From a virus (lineage: Duplodnaviria > Heunggongvirae > Uroviricota > Caudoviricetes), in the IMG/VR virus record IMGVR_UViG_2667528045_000005: 30,049 nucleotides of DNA; one strand, 5' to 3'. The position numbers and the translations under genes are program-made. Position 1 is the stretch's first letter. Every line of letters begins with the position of its first letter. A model generated the notes under the pieces. The model was not told the DNA's origin, searched no databases, and saw only the letters and a list, made by a program, of their open reading frames with translations. Shown one piece after another: positions 20,670 to 30,049 of this stretch.

Positions 20670-21674
20670 ATGGGCGCGGAGATTAATATTTTGGAAACTG
20701 ATTTTAAAATAACCCTCGAAGGTTTCGCTACTGAGCAAGAAGCAAATAATATCGGTAATTTCACACTAGAAGCTATCCGAGCTTTAACAAAAAATCTCAA
20801 TCTTGATATCTCCAAATTAAAATGCGTGATTGTTTCCTATAACTTCAGTGAAGCTCTTCAAAAGGTAACATCCTCTTACCAACACAAATCCCCTAGTTCA
20901 TTTACCAATAGCAAACAGGGCGCAGCCGTCGGGCAGTTAGTAACAAAAATTGGCAATGATGGGCTATGTGAAGAATATACCCTTGTGCTATCGATTGATT
21001 TTTTTGTTGAGCTTTTCAATGATGGTAGCTTCTTAAAACTGAAAGAAGAAGGATACCTCGCAGTCATCCATCGCATTCACCATGAATTAGTGCACGTACA
21101 TGAAAAAAACTTACTAACATGCTTAGCCCAAAACTTTACAGTCAACGAGTATGGTAGCGCGCTTCTTATCTCAGCCACGCGTGCATGGTCTGAATATCTC
21201 GCTAATTACATGTCTTCGGGGTCTGCCCCTCAAGAAACTATCGATTTATTTTTAGAGAATCTTGACACTGTTGTAAATGAAGTATCTGACGAGATTGAAA
21301 AACTCATCTGGGGTTATAAGTACGGTAATATTTCTCTGAATGACATGTATCTTGAAGTAAAAAAACGTATCAGGCTAATCATCAACTCTTATGCTTATGC
21401 GATGGGTTATGTCCATTCTCTAAACATCAATATTAAAGAATACGATCCAAAGCTATCCCTTACACTATCCAACTCAAAGATAAGATATCAATTATCAGAA
21501 TTAGGCATTGCTTTTCAGAATCTTTATGGGAAGTTTAATGACCAGCACATTACAGGTTTTGGTGATTTTCGGGAGATAACAATAATCATTGATGAAATAT
21601 TCAAGCAGTTTGGGCTTGTTTTAGAGTGTCCCGATTGGTCTGGCGACGGTGAACTCTACATACATGTAAATTAG
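20670..21674 (+). CDS. hypothetical protein, AT-rich orphan gene; HRIHHELVHVHE segment (HExxH-like or HEPN-like)
   Basis: 334-aa intact ORF; markedly lower GC than flanking phage genes; inserted between portal Q and cos. Confidence 0.6.
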   Translation: MGAEINILETDFKITLEGFATEQEANNIGNFTLEAIRALTKNLNLDISKLKCVIVSYNFSEALQKVTSSYQHKSPSSFTNSKQGAAVGQLVTKIGNDGLCEEYTLVLSIDFFVELFNDGSFLKLKEEGYLAVIHRIHHELVHVHEKNLLTCLAQNFTVNEYGSALLISATRAWSEYLANYMSSGSAPQETIDLFLENLDTVVNEVSDEIEKLIWGYKYGNISLNDMYLEVKKRIRLIINSYAYAMGYVHSLNINIKEYDPKLSLTLSNSKIRYQLSELGIAFQNLYGKFNDQHITGFGDFREITIIIDEIFKQFGLVLECPDWSGDGELYIHVN

Positions 21675-21912: not shown

Positions 21913-22072
21913 TGCCCGCTTTATGGGGCGGTTTTAATGCAGTTGCATGACAACTCTGGATCCGCGCTAGCTCTGGCGGCGCACGGACAGAACGGGCAAG
22001 ACTGACGCATGCAAAACCATGCACCTAATGCATGCACGACTAAAAAACGGGAAATTCGCGGAAAAATGGCAT

Positions 22073-22971: not shown

Positions 22972-23205
22972 TTAATGCAGCCAGCTATCGTCCTCCCATA
23001 CCTGCTGCATGATTTCCATTACTCGTTTTTTATCTTCGTCCAGTTTCAAACCGCTTAGTTCAACGCCATTAGCGGAGCCCTTGCGAATTCGGATAGCAGT
23101 CTTTGGGTAAATAGGTTGAAGATTGCGGTACAGTTCAGCCTCAAGTGCATCCAATGTTGCCTGACTAATTTTTTGCTCTTTATCCAACGTGATATTGATT
23201 CTCAT
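22972..23205 (-). CDS. dinI: DinI-family protein
   Basis: 77 aa; MRINITLDK...LDALEAELYRNLQPIYP...DEDKKRVMEIMQQVWEDDSW aligns along its length with E. coli DinI. Confidence 0.82.
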   Translation of the reverse strand: MRINITLDKEQKISQATLDALEAELYRNLQPIYPKTAIRIRKGSANGVELSGLKLDEDKKRVMEIMQQVWEDDSWLH

Positions 23206-23208
23206 AAT

Positions 23209-23391
23209 CTAATCAGCCTTATAAAAATTATCATCTTCGGTTTCGTTATTTTCGCTGTTTGCTAGGTCTGCAATGAGAGTGAGCGCGAGCTTTAAGTCTG
23301 ATGGCTTGCAGTTTGCAATCAGAGATACCTCGGCAATAAATTGCACACAAGCCCACTTTTGCTGCGTTCGGCTGAAATGTTCGCCAACCAT
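23209..23391 (-). CDS. hypothetical small protein; candidate SOS-induced antirepressor (Tum-like) by position
   Basis: 60 aa, acidic C-terminus; first gene after the LexA box; stop 4 nt before the dinI-like start. Confidence 0.4.
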   Translation of the reverse strand: MVGEHFSRTQQKWACVQFIAEVSLIANCKPSDLKLALTLIADLANSENNETEDDNFYKAD

Positions 23392-23410
23392 GAAATCCCT
23401 CCCACAGGGT

Positions 23411-23430
23411 TACTGTATATTTATACAGTA
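23411..23430. promoter_or_regulatory. LexA operator (SOS box) overlapping a minus-strand promoter
   Basis: TACTGTATATTTATACAGTA fits CTGT-N8-ACAG consensus perfectly; minus strand has TTGCCA upstream and an AT-rich -10 inside the box; GGGAGGG RBS then ATG of the 60-aa ORF. Confidence 0.8.
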
Positions 23431-25950: not shown

Positions 25951-26177
25951 TAGTGCAGCTCCTGTGATTCATTCTCAAAGCGGGTTGCTTCACGGCGCAG
26001 CAGTTCGGCAGCTTCGGTGCCGCTCATACCCTCTCTGGTAATATGAATAGCCAGCGCCTCAAGGCGGATGGAAACAGCGAGCGCGCGGTCTTTACGCTCT
26101 TCTTTTTTTGCATCGGTCAGCAATACGGCCAGCGCATCGCTATCAGTGTTAAAACTACGGATTTCGGTATTACGCAT
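25950..26177 (-). CDS. hypothetical early protein (P2 orf81-like)
   Basis: 75 aa, positional. Confidence 0.55.
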   Translation of the reverse strand: MRNTEIRSFNTDSDALAVLLTDAKKEERKDRALAVSIRLEALAIHITREGMSGTEAAELLRREATRFENESQELH

Positions 26178-26244
26178 AATTAACTCTCCTGCTTTCGGGC
26201 AATAAGATGCCCGGCGGGTTTACGCCATTAAATTTCTGTTTGGA

Positions 26245-26583
26245 TTAATTCGGCATGGTTAGCCGTTTGGGAAATAAGCTCACTACTGCACGAAAATGAT
26301 TCATCGCTGTAATAAGCGCCTTTTTCTCGTCAGTAGTCAGCTCACTTAATTCGAGTTCATGACGAGCCGCCGGTATTTTTGCCAGAAAGAAAATAGCGGC
26401 CAGCGCCCGATTATTTTCTTCAAATTGTGGGTCACGTTTATCGCGCATATCATCGACAAAACGTTCAACCTCTTTCCAGCTATCGCCCCAATATCTCGCG
26501 CGCAATTCGGCAACATGATTGAGACCGGCCAGACGTTCACCCGCTTTTAGCGGAACAGTCGCGGAAACAGCTTCGATAGCCAT
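26245..26583 (-). CDS. hypothetical early protein (P2 orf80-like)
   Basis: 112 aa, positional. Confidence 0.5.
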   Translation of the reverse strand: MAIEAVSATVPLKAGERLAGLNHVAELRARYWGDSWKEVERFVDDMRDKRDPQFEENNRALAAIFFLAKIPAARHELELSELTTDEKKALITAMNHFRAVVSLFPKRLTMPN

Positions 26584-26753
26584 GATCCCCCCCGCTTTTG
26601 AGTAGAGAGGCCAGCCAGTAAATCAGCCTGCGAGTGGCTCGGGTGCCAGCGCTTGCCGTCCTTACCTGCGATCCAGCCGTGGCCGTAGTGCATGCCGGGG
26701 CTTTGCTTAACGAGCAGCGATGCGAATGACGGTTCACTTTTCAGCATACGCAC
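26547..26753 (-). CDS. hypothetical small early protein
   Basis: 68 aa between B and the next ORF; overlaps the 5' end of the 112-aa ORF. Confidence 0.35.
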   Translation of the reverse strand: MRMLKSEPSFASLLVKQSPGMHYGHGWIAGKDGKRWHPSHSQADLLAGLSTQKRGGSWLSKLFPRLFR

Positions 26754-26754
26754 C

Positions 26755-27264
26755 TCAAATCAGACCAAACGATGCGCCAATACCGCTCATGGTATCGACC
26801 ACGCTCGACATAGCTGGATTAGTCTGCAGACGTGCATGCAGCGCCAGAGCCGACAATGACAACATGCGAATGCCGGAGTTAACGCTTTCAATCATGTTGT
26901 GCTTACGGGCAGTGGTCAGACGTTCATCAGATACCGCGCCGCTCGCCAGTTCGCCGAGTTCACGCATCGCGCGCATGACATAAGACTGCAATTTGTCTTT
27001 AGCCAACTCATTAACCGGCACGCATGGTAGGCAGTGAATCTGCGCTAAAAAACCATCAATGAGGGTTGAGTCTTCGGTCAGGTCAGTCAGCAGCCACAAT
27101 TCAGGCGGCGTGAACTGGTGAGGCTGTTCCGGGTTGAGCTTGTTACGTAACGTTTGAACGTTCATACCTGCACGCTCGGCCAGCTTCGCCATGTTGTGAC
27201 GCTGTGCGAAAATGCGGCATGCTTCGTCATAGTGGGGATGTTTGGAAACCTGAAAATCAAACAT
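26755..27264 (-). CDS. B: replication protein gpB
   Basis: Start trimmed to ATG at 27264 (MFDFQVSKHPHYDEACR...) with GAGGGA RBS; P2 gpB-like; track ORF begins at an upstream TTG. Confidence 0.8.
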   Translation of the reverse strand: MFDFQVSKHPHYDEACRIFAQRHNMAKLAERAGMNVQTLRNKLNPEQPHQFTPPELWLLTDLTEDSTLIDGFLAQIHCLPCVPVNELAKDKLQSYVMRAMRELGELASGAVSDERLTTARKHNMIESVNSGIRMLSLSALALHARLQTNPAMSSVVDTMSGIGASFGLI

Positions 27265-27296
27265 GGTTAAATTCCCTCTAACTTGCATAATCAAAT

Positions 27297-27668
27297 TCAG
27301 TTAAGAGCGGTGCGCTGGTCGATGTAGCGACAATCAATCGCTTGTTGAGTCAGCTTATCGCGCCATGCTTTTACATTTACGAGGGTTCGGCTTCGTTTAG
27401 CAGCTTCCTCTTTGTTGGAAAAGTCTTTGGTCGGAGCTTTGAGAAGGACTCCCTCATCGAGCCATTGCCAGACCAGACGCTCGCTAACACCGCGAGTAGC
27501 GGCGAAGTCTTTCACAGTCATCGTGTCTGACATAGCGGAGCGAATCATTGTCTGTAGAGCTGGCAGCATGGCGGTAACGATGGCATCAAACTGTGTTGGG
27601 TCTAGCAGCACAGTTTGATTTTGTGAGTTTTGCGAGTCGTGCGTCGAGATTGATTTTGCATCTGACAT
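27297..27668 (-). CDS. Cox/Apl-like HTH protein (putative excisionase / lytic-switch regulator); start uncertain
   Basis: First gene of the early operon, divergent from cI; HTH-like TVKDFAATRGVSERLVWQWL; 123 aa is longer than Cox or Apl, so an internal Met may be the true start. Confidence 0.45.
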   Translation of the reverse strand: MSDAKSISTHDSQNSQNQTVLLDPTQFDAIVTAMLPALQTMIRSAMSDTMTVKDFAATRGVSERLVWQWLDEGVLLKAPTKDFSNKEEAAKRSRTLVNVKAWRDKLTQQAIDCRYIDQRTALN

Positions 27669-27781
27669 ATCGCATTATCTCCTGTTGTTTGAAATGTAGT
27701 GCAGTGGTGTGCATCTTGGTCGGTGAGCACCAATATAGATCGCTAAATTTTGGTTGTAAACAAAATTCTTGTTGGTGTCAT
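27669..27781. promoter_or_regulatory. immunity switch region (early and repressor promoters and operators)
   Basis: 113-bp gap between divergent cox-like and cI starts; direct repeats GGTGTGCA (27706-27713) and GGTGAGCA (27722-27729), plus TTGTTTGAAA / TTGTAAACAA inverted elements. Confidence 0.4.
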
Positions 27782-28627
27782 ATGTCTAAAAATGATGTTA
27801 ATGCGTCTGCCGCATTGGAACGTGTCCTTTCTGCATACGGCTTTAAGCAGCAAAAGGAACTAGCCGAAAGGCTTGGCATACATGCAAACAACGTGAGTAG
27901 CTGGCTTGCTAGAAACGTAATCCCTAGCAACGTTTTCGTTGAGTGTGCTCTTGATACTGGAGCTGACCTGCGATGGCTAATTAATGGTGAGCTTGCAAAT
28001 GCAAGATTTGAAGTGGTGAAAACTAAGCTTAAAGGTAAGCAACTCTATGATGAAATCATGGCAAATGGAGGGAGGGCGGTTCTGCGTCGGATTCTCGATG
28101 CGTATGGTTTTACTCTGCAAAAAGAGCTTGGAGATTTATTAGGTATATCTTCCGGCACTATAAGCACTTGGGTTAGACGCGATTTTTTCCCCGGTGACGT
28201 GGTTGTCACTTGCGCCCTTGATACTGGCGTATCGTTAGAATGGTTATCAACCGGAAAAGGCCAGATGCGTAACAGTAATGATGGTGAACCGGCAAATGCT
28301 TTAACGATTAGAAAGTGCCGCCTCGAGGCTGGCGAACTCAAAGATATCGGACGCTGGACTCCTGATATATCTATGGTTCCATCAAATACTGATGATTTAG
28401 TGTTTATTGATGGTGTGAGCACATCTTGGCTTGTTGATAGTTCTAACTCGAAGATAGGAAATGGTCGCTGGCTTATTGGTATTGATGGCGCACTCGATGT
28501 TTTTGACGTAATCAGGTTGCCAGGCGGAAAGGTCAGGTTATCAAATAAGTCTGCTGAGTTTGAATGTAATATTTCAGATATCACACCATCAGGTGCGGTT
28601 ATTTTTACTTTGGAAAAGCATGTTTAA
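27782..28627 (+). CDS. cI: CI-like immunity repressor with tandemly duplicated N-terminal HTH domain
   Basis: Start trimmed to ATG 27782 (MSKNDVN...), 281 aa; two ~65-aa repeats (AYGFKQQKELAERLGI...CALDTGADLRWL and AYGFTLQKELGDLLGI...CALDTGVSLEWL). Confidence 0.72.
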   Translation: MSKNDVNASAALERVLSAYGFKQQKELAERLGIHANNVSSWLARNVIPSNVFVECALDTGADLRWLINGELANARFEVVKTKLKGKQLYDEIMANGGRAVLRRILDAYGFTLQKELGDLLGISSGTISTWVRRDFFPGDVVVTCALDTGVSLEWLSTGKGQMRNSNDGEPANALTIRKCRLEAGELKDIGRWTPDISMVPSNTDDLVFIDGVSTSWLVDSSNSKIGNGRWLIGIDGALDVFDVIRLPGGKVRLSNKSAEFECNISDITPSGAVIFTLEKHV

Positions 28628-28636
28628 GGAGCAGTA

Positions 28637-28975
28637 ATGAAAAAGTTTATATTTGCGATAGTCTGCATTGCACTTTCTTCCTCAGCCATAGCCGCTGAGA
28701 AGTTTAAAGAGATAGACGGCGCTGCATATGGTGACAAGTGGCCTCTAACCTTTGAAAAGGCAAAGGTATCATGTGTTAACCGTGCTTATGCTTTTGTGTA
28801 TGACATCAAAACTGATGATAGATATCCTCTGAATGGCATGGCGGTAGATGCTGTTAAATCAGGAAAGCTGGAGGGGTCTAACTTAGATGACGTATGGAAG
28901 GATGACCCTGAGTATGACGGCGTTAAAATTTCAATTTCACCGGTGATTGATGCCGCTACAGCCCTTTGTAATTAA
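28637..28975 (+). CDS. secreted small protein of unknown function (signal peptide), moron between cI and int
   Basis: 112 aa; MKKFIFAIVCIALSSSAIA signal peptide; two Cys in mature part; lower GC than the phage core. Confidence 0.6.
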   Translation: MKKFIFAIVCIALSSSAIAAEKFKEIDGAAYGDKWPLTFEKAKVSCVNRAYAFVYDIKTDDRYPLNGMAVDAVKSGKLEGSNLDDVWKDDPEYDGVKISISPVIDAATALCN

Positions 28976-28999
28976 TTTTCTTTTAGCCTCGGTATCGCA

Positions 29000-30049
29000 A
29001 TGACTGTAAGTAAACAAAAAAGTGGAAAATGGTTGTGTGAACTCTATCCAAATGGTCGAGAAGGGCGGCGTATACGTCGGCAGTTCAATACCAAAGGTGA
29101 GGCCGAGGCATTTGAAGCATTTACCAAAAGCGAGAGTGAAGATAAGCCGTGGCTCGGCAAGAAAGAAGACCGCCGACGCTTAAGCGAGATTATTCAGCTT
29201 TGGCACAATTTGCACGGTCAAGCGTTAGTCGCCAGTAAGTCGAGATTTGCAAAGCTTCAAATCGTATGTAATGGACTTGGCGACCCGATTGCATCTCGCC
29301 TTACCGCGAAAGACTGGGCTCATTATCGTGACCGTCGATTACGTGGTGAAATAGACAATGGTTATCATAAAGACCCCTCGAAATGGATCGCCAAACCTAT
29401 AACCGTCAATCGCGAACAACAATACCTAGAAGCAGTGTTTAATGAGCTCCGCCGGTTAGGGGAGTGGAGCCTACCCAATCCACTTGATGGGATCCGAGTA
29501 TTCAAAGAAGCTGAGAAAGAAATGTCCTGGCTAACTTTGTCTCAGCTCCCGGAGCTGTTTCGAGCCTGCGAGCAATACGGCAAAGAAGACCTCACCATGA
29601 TTGTTAAGGTGTGCCTTGCAACCGGCGCTCGATGGGGGGAAGCGGAGAGATTGACCCGACCTCAACTTTCTCCATATAAACTAACGTTCACCAAAACCAA
29701 AGGTAAGAAGAATCGCACAGTTCCTATTCCTAAATGGCTGTACGACGAGTTGTCCGTACGTCAAGGCAGAATGTTTAAACCCTGCTATCAGGAGTTTAAA
29801 AAGATGCTCAAACTAACGAATATTGAATTGACGGAAGGGCAGAAGACGCACGTTTTGCGTCATACTTTTGGTGCGCATTTTATGATGAACGGAGGGAATA
29901 TACTGGTGCTGCAGAAAATTCTCGGACATGCCAATATTCGAGAAACAATGAAGTATGCGCACTTTGCTCCTGACCACCTTGAACAAGCTGTAACCCTCAA
30001 TCCGTTATCGCTGTATGTTGGCGACAATGTGGCGGCAGAGGTTGCATAA
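29000..30049 (+). CDS. int: tyrosine integrase
   Basis: 349 aa; C-terminal catalytic signature (HVLRHTF...GHANIRETMKYAHF); ends exactly at the window edge. Confidence 0.9.
   Translation: MTVSKQKSGKWLCELYPNGREGRRIRRQFNTKGEAEAFEAFTKSESEDKPWLGKKEDRRRLSEIIQLWHNLHGQALVASKSRFAKLQIVCNGLGDPIASRLTAKDWAHYRDRRLRGEIDNGYHKDPSKWIAKPITVNREQQYLEAVFNELRRLGEWSLPNPLDGIRVFKEAEKEMSWLTLSQLPELFRACEQYGKEDLTMIVKVCLATGARWGEAERLTRPQLSPYKLTFTKTKGKKNRTVPIPKWLYDELSVRQGRMFKPCYQEFKKMLKLTNIELTEGQKTHVLRHTFGAHFMMNGGNILVLQKILGHANIRETMKYAHFAPDHLEQAVTLNPLSLYVGDNVAAEVA

Follow-up and report, generated by a model that had tools for sequence, protein, structure and literature searches.

A PSP3-type CI repressor with two paralogous DNA-binding heads in an Escherichia coli prophage, and a proposed division of operators between them

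The Caudoviricetes record IMGVR_UViG_2667528045_000005 of IMG/VR, a stretch of 30,049 nucleotides that was analysed whole and is called the window below, is a nearly complete 186/P2-family prophage, and its cI gene encodes the CI immunity repressor of a PSP3-type (186-like, P2 family) E. coli prophage. The protein is laid out as a first N-terminal DNA-binding domain or head (NTD1), a linker, a second such head (NTD2), another linker and a 186-type C-terminal domain. Comparison of related phages leads us to favour, with reasonable though not high confidence, a reading in which NTD1 sets immunity specificity at the lytic promoter, pR, and NTD2 reads conserved distal operators. The more general picture, of a single repressor with two paralogous heads, a fast-evolving one for immunity at the lytic promoter and a frozen one for distal operators common to heteroimmune phages, is one that we credit about as much as we doubt it. 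The 186 switch is among the best-understood alternatives to that of lambda, and in it one head on a protein wheel must read two unrelated operator classes; the PSP3-type repressor seems to solve this problem by having two heads, and concrete operator predictions result from reading it so. We regard the two-headed architecture, with the operator partition proposed here, as an undescribed variant of the 186 switch. A literature search, with subscription journals mostly outside its coverage, found no paper describing the head duplication and none dissecting PSP3 CI. Nilsson et al. (2011) ascribed the extra length of PsP3 CI over 186 CI to 'a longer C-terminal domain', and treated the C and CI repressors as unalignable (PMC3448106).

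The gene and the domains of its product lie as follows.
27782..28627, + strand: cI, PSP3-type two-headed immunity repressor of 281 residues; ATG at 27782, stop at 28625-28627; two PF07022 stretches plus PF16452.
27803..27991, + strand: NTD1 (residues ~8-70), variable helix-turn-helix head with five helices in residues 8-68, proposed immunity-specificity domain; identity 0.63 among homologues.
28037..28261, + strand: conserved helix (residues 86-95) and NTD2 (residues ~97-160), near-invariant helix-turn-helix head; identity 0.90.
28307..28624, + strand: C-terminal domain with the 186 CI-type oligomerisation fold; PF16452, and 2FKD/2FJR by sequence and fold.

A Pfam search of the CI protein returned PF07022 (Phage_CI_repr) over two stretches (E 1.5e-47) and PF16452 (Phage_CI_C) at residues 176-269 (E 4.6e-19). 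Aligned with itself, the protein contains two repeats, residues 10-70 and 99-159, which are identical at 31 of 61 positions (51%, E 1e-23) and share the motif CALDTG..L.WL (residues 55-66 and 144-155). The sequence of 186 CI (PDB 2FJR) aligns with residues 100-274 alone (E 4e-21) and, in a search of 1.84 billion representatives, single-headed relatives of ~190-200 residues consistently matched from residue ~95 on; because both align with the latter part only, we regard repeat 1 as the addition, and repeat 2 with the C-terminal domain as a whole 186-type CI. An AlphaFold2 model made from a 37-sequence alignment (mean predicted local distance difference test score 75.8, predicted template modelling score 0.47) has three separate domains, with five-helix heads at residues 8-68 and 97-157, an additional helix at residues 86-95, a C-terminal beta domain, and linkers of low confidence at residues 72-81 and 163-172. 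These results bear out the original prediction, made from the sequence alone, that the gene encodes a CI-like immunity repressor with a duplicated DNA-binding domain. Annotated cI homologues do not begin at the longer in-frame start, a GTG at 27593.

The same prediction had the C-terminal domain lacking an S24 peptidase motif, and this also held: Peptidase_S24 was absent from the Pfam matches at E<0.1, and no Ser/Lys cleavage motif was recognisable at the profile level. In Foldseek the top match by far to this domain was the C-terminal domain of 186 CI (2FKD), with a template modelling (TM) score of 0.89 and a root-mean-square deviation of 1.7 Å; as a nuance, the fold is LexA/lambda-CI-like, and the catalytic domains of that class were matched remotely (TM score by target ~0.55-0.6). 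With no S24 profile and this remote fold resemblance only, the protein falls outside the self-cleaving lambda CI/LexA class, and with 281 residues and other families it is not of the P2 C type (~99 residues, single domain, binding direct repeats). It also departs from 186-type CI, which has one DNA-binding head per chain; its two heads place it in the PSP3-type subgroup, with NTD1, NTD2 and PF16452 within ~276-289 residues and the sequence SSGTISTWVRR invariant in NTD2 throughout the 37-member alignment.

The two heads have evolved very differently. Over 37 homologues the mean pairwise identity was 0.63 for NTD1, 0.90 for NTD2 and 0.71 for the C-terminal domain, and 38 of the 65 columns of NTD2 were invariant, those of the complete turn and recognition helix (SSGTISTWVRR) among them. 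We also scanned loci at one genome per species, which gave 54 two-headed and 24 single-headed CI loci; amino acid identity in 54 genes was 0.57, 0.80 and 0.49 for NTD1, NTD2 and the C-terminal domain respectively. In these genes the proportion of identical codons among identical residues was 0.39-0.41 in all three domains and, since silent-site identity is thus equal across domains, the conservation of NTD2 reflects purifying selection and not recent common descent. NTD2 is therefore under much stronger purifying selection than NTD1. The variable positions of NTD1 include the turn and recognition helix (residues 34-43), of which there are at least ten variants among the 54 loci, while the hallmarks of PF07022 (R14, Y19, Q24, K25, W41, R44, C55, T59, G60, W65 and L66) are invariant.

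In the GenBank annotation of 186, CI sites are placed at pR (three sites), at FL (in cI, after the head), at FR (between apl and cII, over the promoter pE) and at pB (two sites, over the late gene B promoter); that CI represses B directly in 186 is also what the title of Dibbens et al. (1992) announces. The distal sites of 186 share one palindrome (GATTCACATTAAGTGAAG, AATTCACATAAAGTGAATT and TATTCACAAAAAGTGAATT; ATTCAC-N5-GTGAAT), unlike the pR sites. In the model for 186, seven dimers form a wheel, the three operators at pR are spaced by two turns, and FL and FR, at a distance of ~300 bp, are looped to this wheel (PMC3675496). In the window and its relatives a conserved palindrome of another sequence, AACTTGCA-WW-TGCAAGTT, occupies the positions equivalent to FL, FR and the late-activator promoter, where it marks predicted operators.
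27280..27297, no strand: FR-equivalent operator AACTTGCATAATCAAATT, proposed NTD2 site at the 186 FR position, overlapping the pE -10; one mismatch to AACTTG-N6-CAAGTT.
27990..28007, no strand: FL-equivalent operator AGCTTGCAAATGCAAGAT, proposed NTD2 site inside cI right after NTD1, at codons 70-76 (ELANARF).

Nowhere else in the whole 30-kb window does the palindrome match with two mismatches or fewer among its 12 outer positions. Complete phage genomes have a third copy, which overlaps the -35 of pag/ogr, the gene of the late activator (21278-21295 in PSP3, and also present in SW9 and Midge). In the prophage of E. coli 97.3, which shares 99.8% identity with the window over the two compared stretches, AACTTGCAAATGCAATTT lies 14-31 nt beyond the left edge of the window; the MB06232 prophage is not collinear with the window, and the late-activator promoter was hence taken from strain 97.3. 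The FR site lies 15 nt past the cII ATG in 26/26 loci where cII was located, with diverged flanks. At FL, the Ala codons are GCA in 40/41 and 30/36 cases and AAT encodes Asn in 41/41, whereas elsewhere in NTD1 Ala is encoded in all four ways, and the DNA motif is retained under differing peptides (NSHLQ, IANLNLQD); with synonymous codons fixed and the motif kept beneath other peptides, FL is evidently constrained at the DNA level. A palindrome in the linker-coding region of cI, GCCTCGAGGC, had been considered as FL and was dropped once FL was located at 27990.

The palindrome was then scored over 16 positions, with a threshold of three mismatches, across the scanned loci, where the background was one match in 206,336 positions. 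In the two-headed loci it was found at the FR position in 26 of 54 and at the FL position in 25 of 54 (42 of 54 for FL at up to four mismatches), and at pR in 0 of 54. In the 24 single-headed loci (192-196 residues; Rahnella, Ewingella, Chimaeribacter, Franconibacter and Citrobacter), whose sole head is nearly identical to NTD2, it was found in the lytic-promoter region of 20, and in one of them (L064) it takes up the spacer between the hexamers of TTGACA-17-TAGATT. NTD1 types A, B, C, E, F and G all share one distal palindrome, which occurs with four types of Apl as well as without an adjacent Apl; being constant across both, it tracks NTD2 rather than NTD1 or Apl. Nor would these be CII sites, since 186, whose CII is ~95% identical in DNA, has another palindrome at the FR position. 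Because of this constancy, and because the palindrome is a promoter-core operator where an NTD2-like head is the sole head, its assignment to NTD2 is the simplest one. PSP3-type phages thus appear to keep the topology of 186 with a different palindrome at all three distal places. Three single-headed loci (L072, L078 and L079) have an NTD2-like recognition helix and an AACTTG...CAAG palindrome at FR, together with a different palindrome in the lytic-promoter spacer (AACCTC-N-GAGGT / ACCTTA-N5-TAAGGT) that carries compensatory changes between loci.

The region between cI and its left-hand neighbour contains the following elements.
27732..27760, - strand: strong lytic promoter (pR equivalent), TTTACA-17-TATATT, 10/12 matches to consensus; the -35 (TGTAAA) is invariant in relatives.
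27746..27767, no strand: type-specific palindrome AATTTTGGTT-GT-AAACAAAATT, centred on the pR -35 and the best inverted repeat of the region; proposed NTD1 operator.
27650..27678, + strand: putative lysogenic promoter (pL equivalent), TTGATT-17-CATTAT, at a position analogous to the annotated 186 pL.
27648..27722, no strand: block of 75 bp between pL and pR with probable sites for an Apl/Cox-like protein; identical in six phages of three immunity types.

The pR equivalent was the sole sigma-70-like site from a promoter scan of 27250-27850; the pL equivalent has 8/12 consensus matches and was hence missed by that scan. The -10 of the annotated 186 pL (TTGCGA-17-CATGAT) begins 4 nt after the apl start codon, and the offset in the window is the same, so by analogy pL and pR are probably convergent with an overlap of ~40 nt. 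Across six aligned phages, 27648-27722 is 100% identical, and from 27723 to the cI ATG the sequences fall into three groups which coincide with three NTD1 types. In the wider set of loci the invariant block switches with the type of Apl-position protein; for this reason, and because the Apl sites of 186 occupy the same position, it is probably an operator of the Apl/Cox-like protein and not of CI. We had considered TGCA-N6-TGCA (27700-27713), inside this block, as an NTD2 site and rejected it, as phages with the same NTD2 and the 133-residue Apl type have another block; the window has no second copy close to it, its only other exact match, at 22010, being unrelated and within chance.

The pR palindrome AATTTTGGTT-GT-AAACAAAATT is found in loci with the same NTD1 helix (SW9, L009 and L032), and other NTD1 types have other palindromes there, of similar build and different sequence (ATCGCAAATGCGAT in Kosakonia types and ACACGTAACGTGT in Dickeya types). 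No second copy of it was found in 26000-29500. When operators were compared over 33 promoter-anchored nucleotides with the hexamers excluded, their identity was 0.73 where NTD1 helices were at least 90% identical and 0.37-0.41 where these were less than 70% identical; for the same NTD1 helix with a differing neighbouring block it was 0.62. This covariation lends modest support to NTD1 as the head that would bind the pR operators. The idea that NTD1 serves FL and FR through distal copies of the type-specific pR palindromes was dropped, none being present in ten loci or in the window.

Several points weigh against this division of operators between the heads. The assignments of head to site all come from comparison, and the AlphaFold2 model, with its predicted template modelling score of 0.47, leaves the inter-domain geometry undefined. 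The covariation of NTD1 and pR is modest, the loci being non-independent and physical linkage accounting for part of it, and cruder tests of NTD1 helix against operator (alignment-free 6-mers, or anchoring on the start codon) gave rho values of 0.31-0.43 with no separation from linkage, a usable signal coming from the promoter-anchored comparison alone. Many loci match the distal consensus loosely, with 4-6/16 mismatches, and in L072, L078 and L079 the same helix goes with another pR palindrome, so that the mapping of helix to operator is not one-to-one. Shearwin et al. (2002; in the references of PMC3675496) state in their title that the single 186 head binds two operator types; given this, and the three single-headed loci just named, pR might be served by NTD2 as well, or the distal sites by NTD1. 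Finally, a pag operator common to heteroimmune phages would imply partial cross-repression, which is so far unreported.

Of the other explanations, the one that fares best, although we think it unlikely, is that NTD2 works at all operators as the 186 head does, NTD1 being an accessory (for example to modulate, to decoy foreign antirepressors or to add a second element of dimerisation) whose variability would stem from relaxed or diversifying selection unrelated to operator choice. That pR palindromes differ where NTD2 is identical, and tend to agree where NTD1 helices agree, speaks against this, as does the retention in NTD1 of all PF07022 structural hallmarks with variation that includes the turn and recognition helix, whereas the two operator classes of the 186 head, the use of at least two different pR palindromes by single-headed relatives with the same helix, and the completeness of NTD2 plus the C-terminal domain as a 186-type CI are what it has in its favour.

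The original prediction had proposed that the two modules of one chain recognise tandem half-sites, and had pointed to direct repeats in the switch region. In such a model the heads would sit side by side on composite operators, the chain being akin to a covalent dimer, and both the short flexible linker joining them and the conserved ATCG(C) that adjoins type-specific sequence at the pR -10 in most loci, which could be a constant half-site, would suit it. The repeats themselves are present (GGTGTGCA at 27706-27713 and GGTGAGCA at 27722-27729), but at chance level, the 113-bp spacer holding three pairs of 8-mers with at most one mismatch against 2.94 expected from shuffles. The pair spans the boundary of the invariant block, its second copy is not kept in relatives, and it lies in or beside the inter-promoter block that varies with the type of Apl/Cox-like protein. 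The recognisable operators are instead symmetric palindromes whose arms are identical, as would suit two copies of one head, and the NTD2-type palindrome stands alone at FL, FR and pag with no adjoining type-specific half-site, while pR never matches it. We consequently found no support for the half-site proposal and consider it improbable.

Least probable of all is a non-DNA-binding NTD2, conserved as a docking surface for the antirepressor TumA or as a packing spacer, with the palindromes read by another conserved factor or serving as promoter elements: TumA does have 98-100% identity between immunity types and is found in the phage collection exactly where PSP3-type CI is, and there is a good -10 (CATAAT) in FR and a good -35 (TTGCAA) in the pag site, but single-headed CI has no DNA-binding domain other than this head, and there the palindrome lies in the lytic-promoter core, FL is intragenic with no apparent promoter role and yet constrained at silent sites, the outer arms AACTTG/CAAGTT are conserved further than a promoter hexamer requires, and the three positions are those of experimentally annotated 186 CI sites.

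With NTD1 at pR and NTD2 at the distal operators, the switch might work as follows. The C-terminal domain would dimerise CI, probably into a 186-style wheel, each dimer presenting an NTD1 pair and an NTD2 pair; the wheel of seven dimers is assumed by analogy with 186, what is similar here being the C-terminal fold. An NTD1 pair on the pR palindrome or palindromes (27746-27767) would turn the lytic operon off, an NTD2 pair on FR (27280-27297, at the -10 of the CII-dependent pE) would damp pE, and NTD2 pairs would also hold FL (27990-28007) and the pag promoter (14-31 nt left of the window), at the latter keeping the late genes off, with NTD2 at the distal sites looping the DNA to the pR complex. 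The jobs of the single 186 head would in this way be split between two paralogous heads, and a new immunity would require a new NTD1 and ~60 bp of pR operators, the distal sites, the C-terminal domain and the TumA contact being unchanged. Both the abrupt change at 27722/27723 and the constancy of TumA fit such an exchange. If this is true, immunity would diversify through the swap of a ~300-bp cassette (pR operators plus NTD1), and the CI of a resident prophage could bring about partial repression of pE and of the late activator in heteroimmune relatives, a level of cross-talk above classical immunity. These phages would then offer a natural experiment for separating operator classes, looping and immunity specificity, and would bear on the reasons why immunity regions recombine at particular places and on cross-regulation between co-resident or superinfecting relatives.

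Induction of the prophage appears to run through a split tum operon on the - strand (22972-23428), in which a LexA box is followed by tumA and by tumB, which begins 3 nt past the tumA stop; in 186 the corresponding gene is a fused Tum of 146 residues.
23413..23428, no strand: LexA box preceding tumA, CTGTATATTTATACAG; no other exact CTGT-N8-ACAG occurs in the window.
23209..23391, - strand: tumA, antirepressor candidate of 60 residues; phrog_1993; 98% identical to PSP3 TumA.
22972..23205, - strand: tumB, DinI-like; phrog_189 (DinI); annotated TumB in PSP3.

The Tum of 186 is a LexA-controlled antirepressor and the PSP3 tum region is split, with the upstream gene as the antirepressor (PMC3121763). 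The PSP3 annotation of the 60-residue homologue reads 'TumA; UV induction of prophage', and in the phage collection tumA is 98-100% identical in exactly the ten phage records with PSP3-type CI. By these genes the window carries the LexA-controlled Tum antirepressor system of the 186 type, in the form of the LexA box and TumA and TumB homologues whose function is taken from the PSP3 and 186 literature. Induction of CI through a LexA-controlled TumA antirepressor is thus well supported by homology, and the earlier proposal that an antirepressor induces the prophage in place of RecA-mediated cleavage fits what we found. DNA damage would make LexA release tumA, and TumA, the same across immunity types, would have to inactivate CI through a conserved part, either NTD2 or the C-terminal domain.

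The window is 99.8-100% identical to prophages of complete E. coli genomes in the two stretches compared (1-500 and 27640-28640), the cI region was matched in 68 of 5,426 genomes, and the gene has a 100% DNA match in E. coli MB06232, where it is annotated 'phage repressor protein CI'. Taken alone, cI is an unremarkable representative of the PSP3-type CI group. Two-headed CI proteins form more than 120 clusters at 90% identity and about ten representative clusters at 50%; their hosts are Escherichia, Salmonella, Klebsiella, Enterobacter, Citrobacter, Cronobacter, Kosakonia and others, and all are named 'phage repressor protein CI'. Prophages of Escherichia, Salmonella, Klebsiella, Enterobacter, Kosakonia and Pectobacterium commonly encode a PSP3-type repressor.

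Within the PSP3 group (PSP3 CI AAN08403; phages SW9, SI22, SEN1, Midge, RCIP0057 and vB_EcoM-613R3) the repressors have the same three-domain build as that of the window and are 67-92% identical to it (91.5% for Salmonella phages SW9 and SI22, ~73% for PSP3 and SEN1, and ~67% for Escherichia phage Midge and Klebsiella phage RCIP0057). The group also shares the neighbours of cI (an apl-position gene, a 186-type cII, a DUF2511 gene and int), the split tumA/tumB with a near-identical TumA, and the distal palindromes. The window differs from PSP3 in its NTD1 type, 'IHANNVSSWLARN', which has its own pR palindrome and is common to SW9; PSP3, 613R3 and SEN1 are of one other type, and Midge and RCIP0057 of another. 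The CI of 186 (2FJR, 2FKD) is similar in having a PF07022-family head, a PF16452 C-terminal domain, convergent pR and pL, a LexA-controlled Tum, and CI sites at pR and at distal FL, FR and pB, with a single palindrome type for the three distal places. It differs in that a single head serves both operator classes, whereas the window has two heads, and its operators are unrelated (ATTCAC-N5-GTGAAT as against AACTTGCA-WW-TGCAAGTT); FL follows the sole head in 186 and NTD1 in the window, and in 186 tum is unsplit and another type of protein holds the apl position.

Single-headed 'SGTISTW-type' CI proteins (192-196 residues, L055-L079) align with residues ~86-281 at 45-51% identity overall and have a near-identical recognition helix and the same palindrome; they lack NTD1, and in them the palindrome is mostly the primary operator in the lytic-promoter spacer and not distal. 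Lambda CI and LexA resemble the window repressor in their N-terminal DNA-binding head, a remotely similar C-terminal oligomerising beta domain and long-range cooperation of operator clusters, and differ in their S24 domain and RecA-stimulated self-cleavage, the family of the window being induced by an antirepressor. The 313-residue CI of Klebsiella phage 4LV2017 (L006; 32% identity) aligns across both heads in one piece, at a locus without the AACTTG palindrome, and is possibly a separate lineage of two-headed CI. Five further proteins (P0180, P0193, P0194, P0224 and P0252) have three to seven PF07022-like stretches, one of 525 residues having seven, and arrays of this head are therefore not restricted to two copies.

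The gene order around cI is 186-like, with cII and apl on the - strand to its left and the DUF2511 gene and int downstream.
27297..27668, - strand: apl/cox-position gene of 123 residues; phrog_3554, a weak Cox-like PHROG match and no Pfam match.
26755..27264, - strand: cII, 186-type, PF06892; ~95% DNA identity to 186 cII.

The apl-position gene of PSP3 has been called a singleton (PMC3448106); in relatives this position holds at least four different proteins (74, 111, 123-125 and 133-138 residues), and at least two of these types have in common a C-terminal winged helix-turn-helix-like segment. The 5' part of the gene in the window contains an inverted repeat (27585-27619) with 14-nt arms, ATCAAACTGTGTTG and CAGCACAGTTTGAT, spaced by 7 nt. 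Directly upstream of the pR -10 there is a GATC Dam site (27738-27741), kept in most immunity types as TAGATCG, which could be part of an operator or a methylation-sensitive promoter element. Between cI and int, a DUF2511 (YebY-like) protein with a signal-peptide-like N-terminus is encoded at 28637-28975 on the + strand; it is kept in PSP3 (gp28) and relatives and is presumably co-transcribed with cI in the lysogen. Further away, between the portal gene and the tum region, a 334-residue open reading frame (ORF; 20670-21674, + strand; phrog_11743, unknown function) lies in a low-GC island (GC 0.37-0.41 against ~0.5 nearby). A PADLOC scan of the low-GC ORFs including this one gave no match, and it looks like a moron at a P2-type hotspot.

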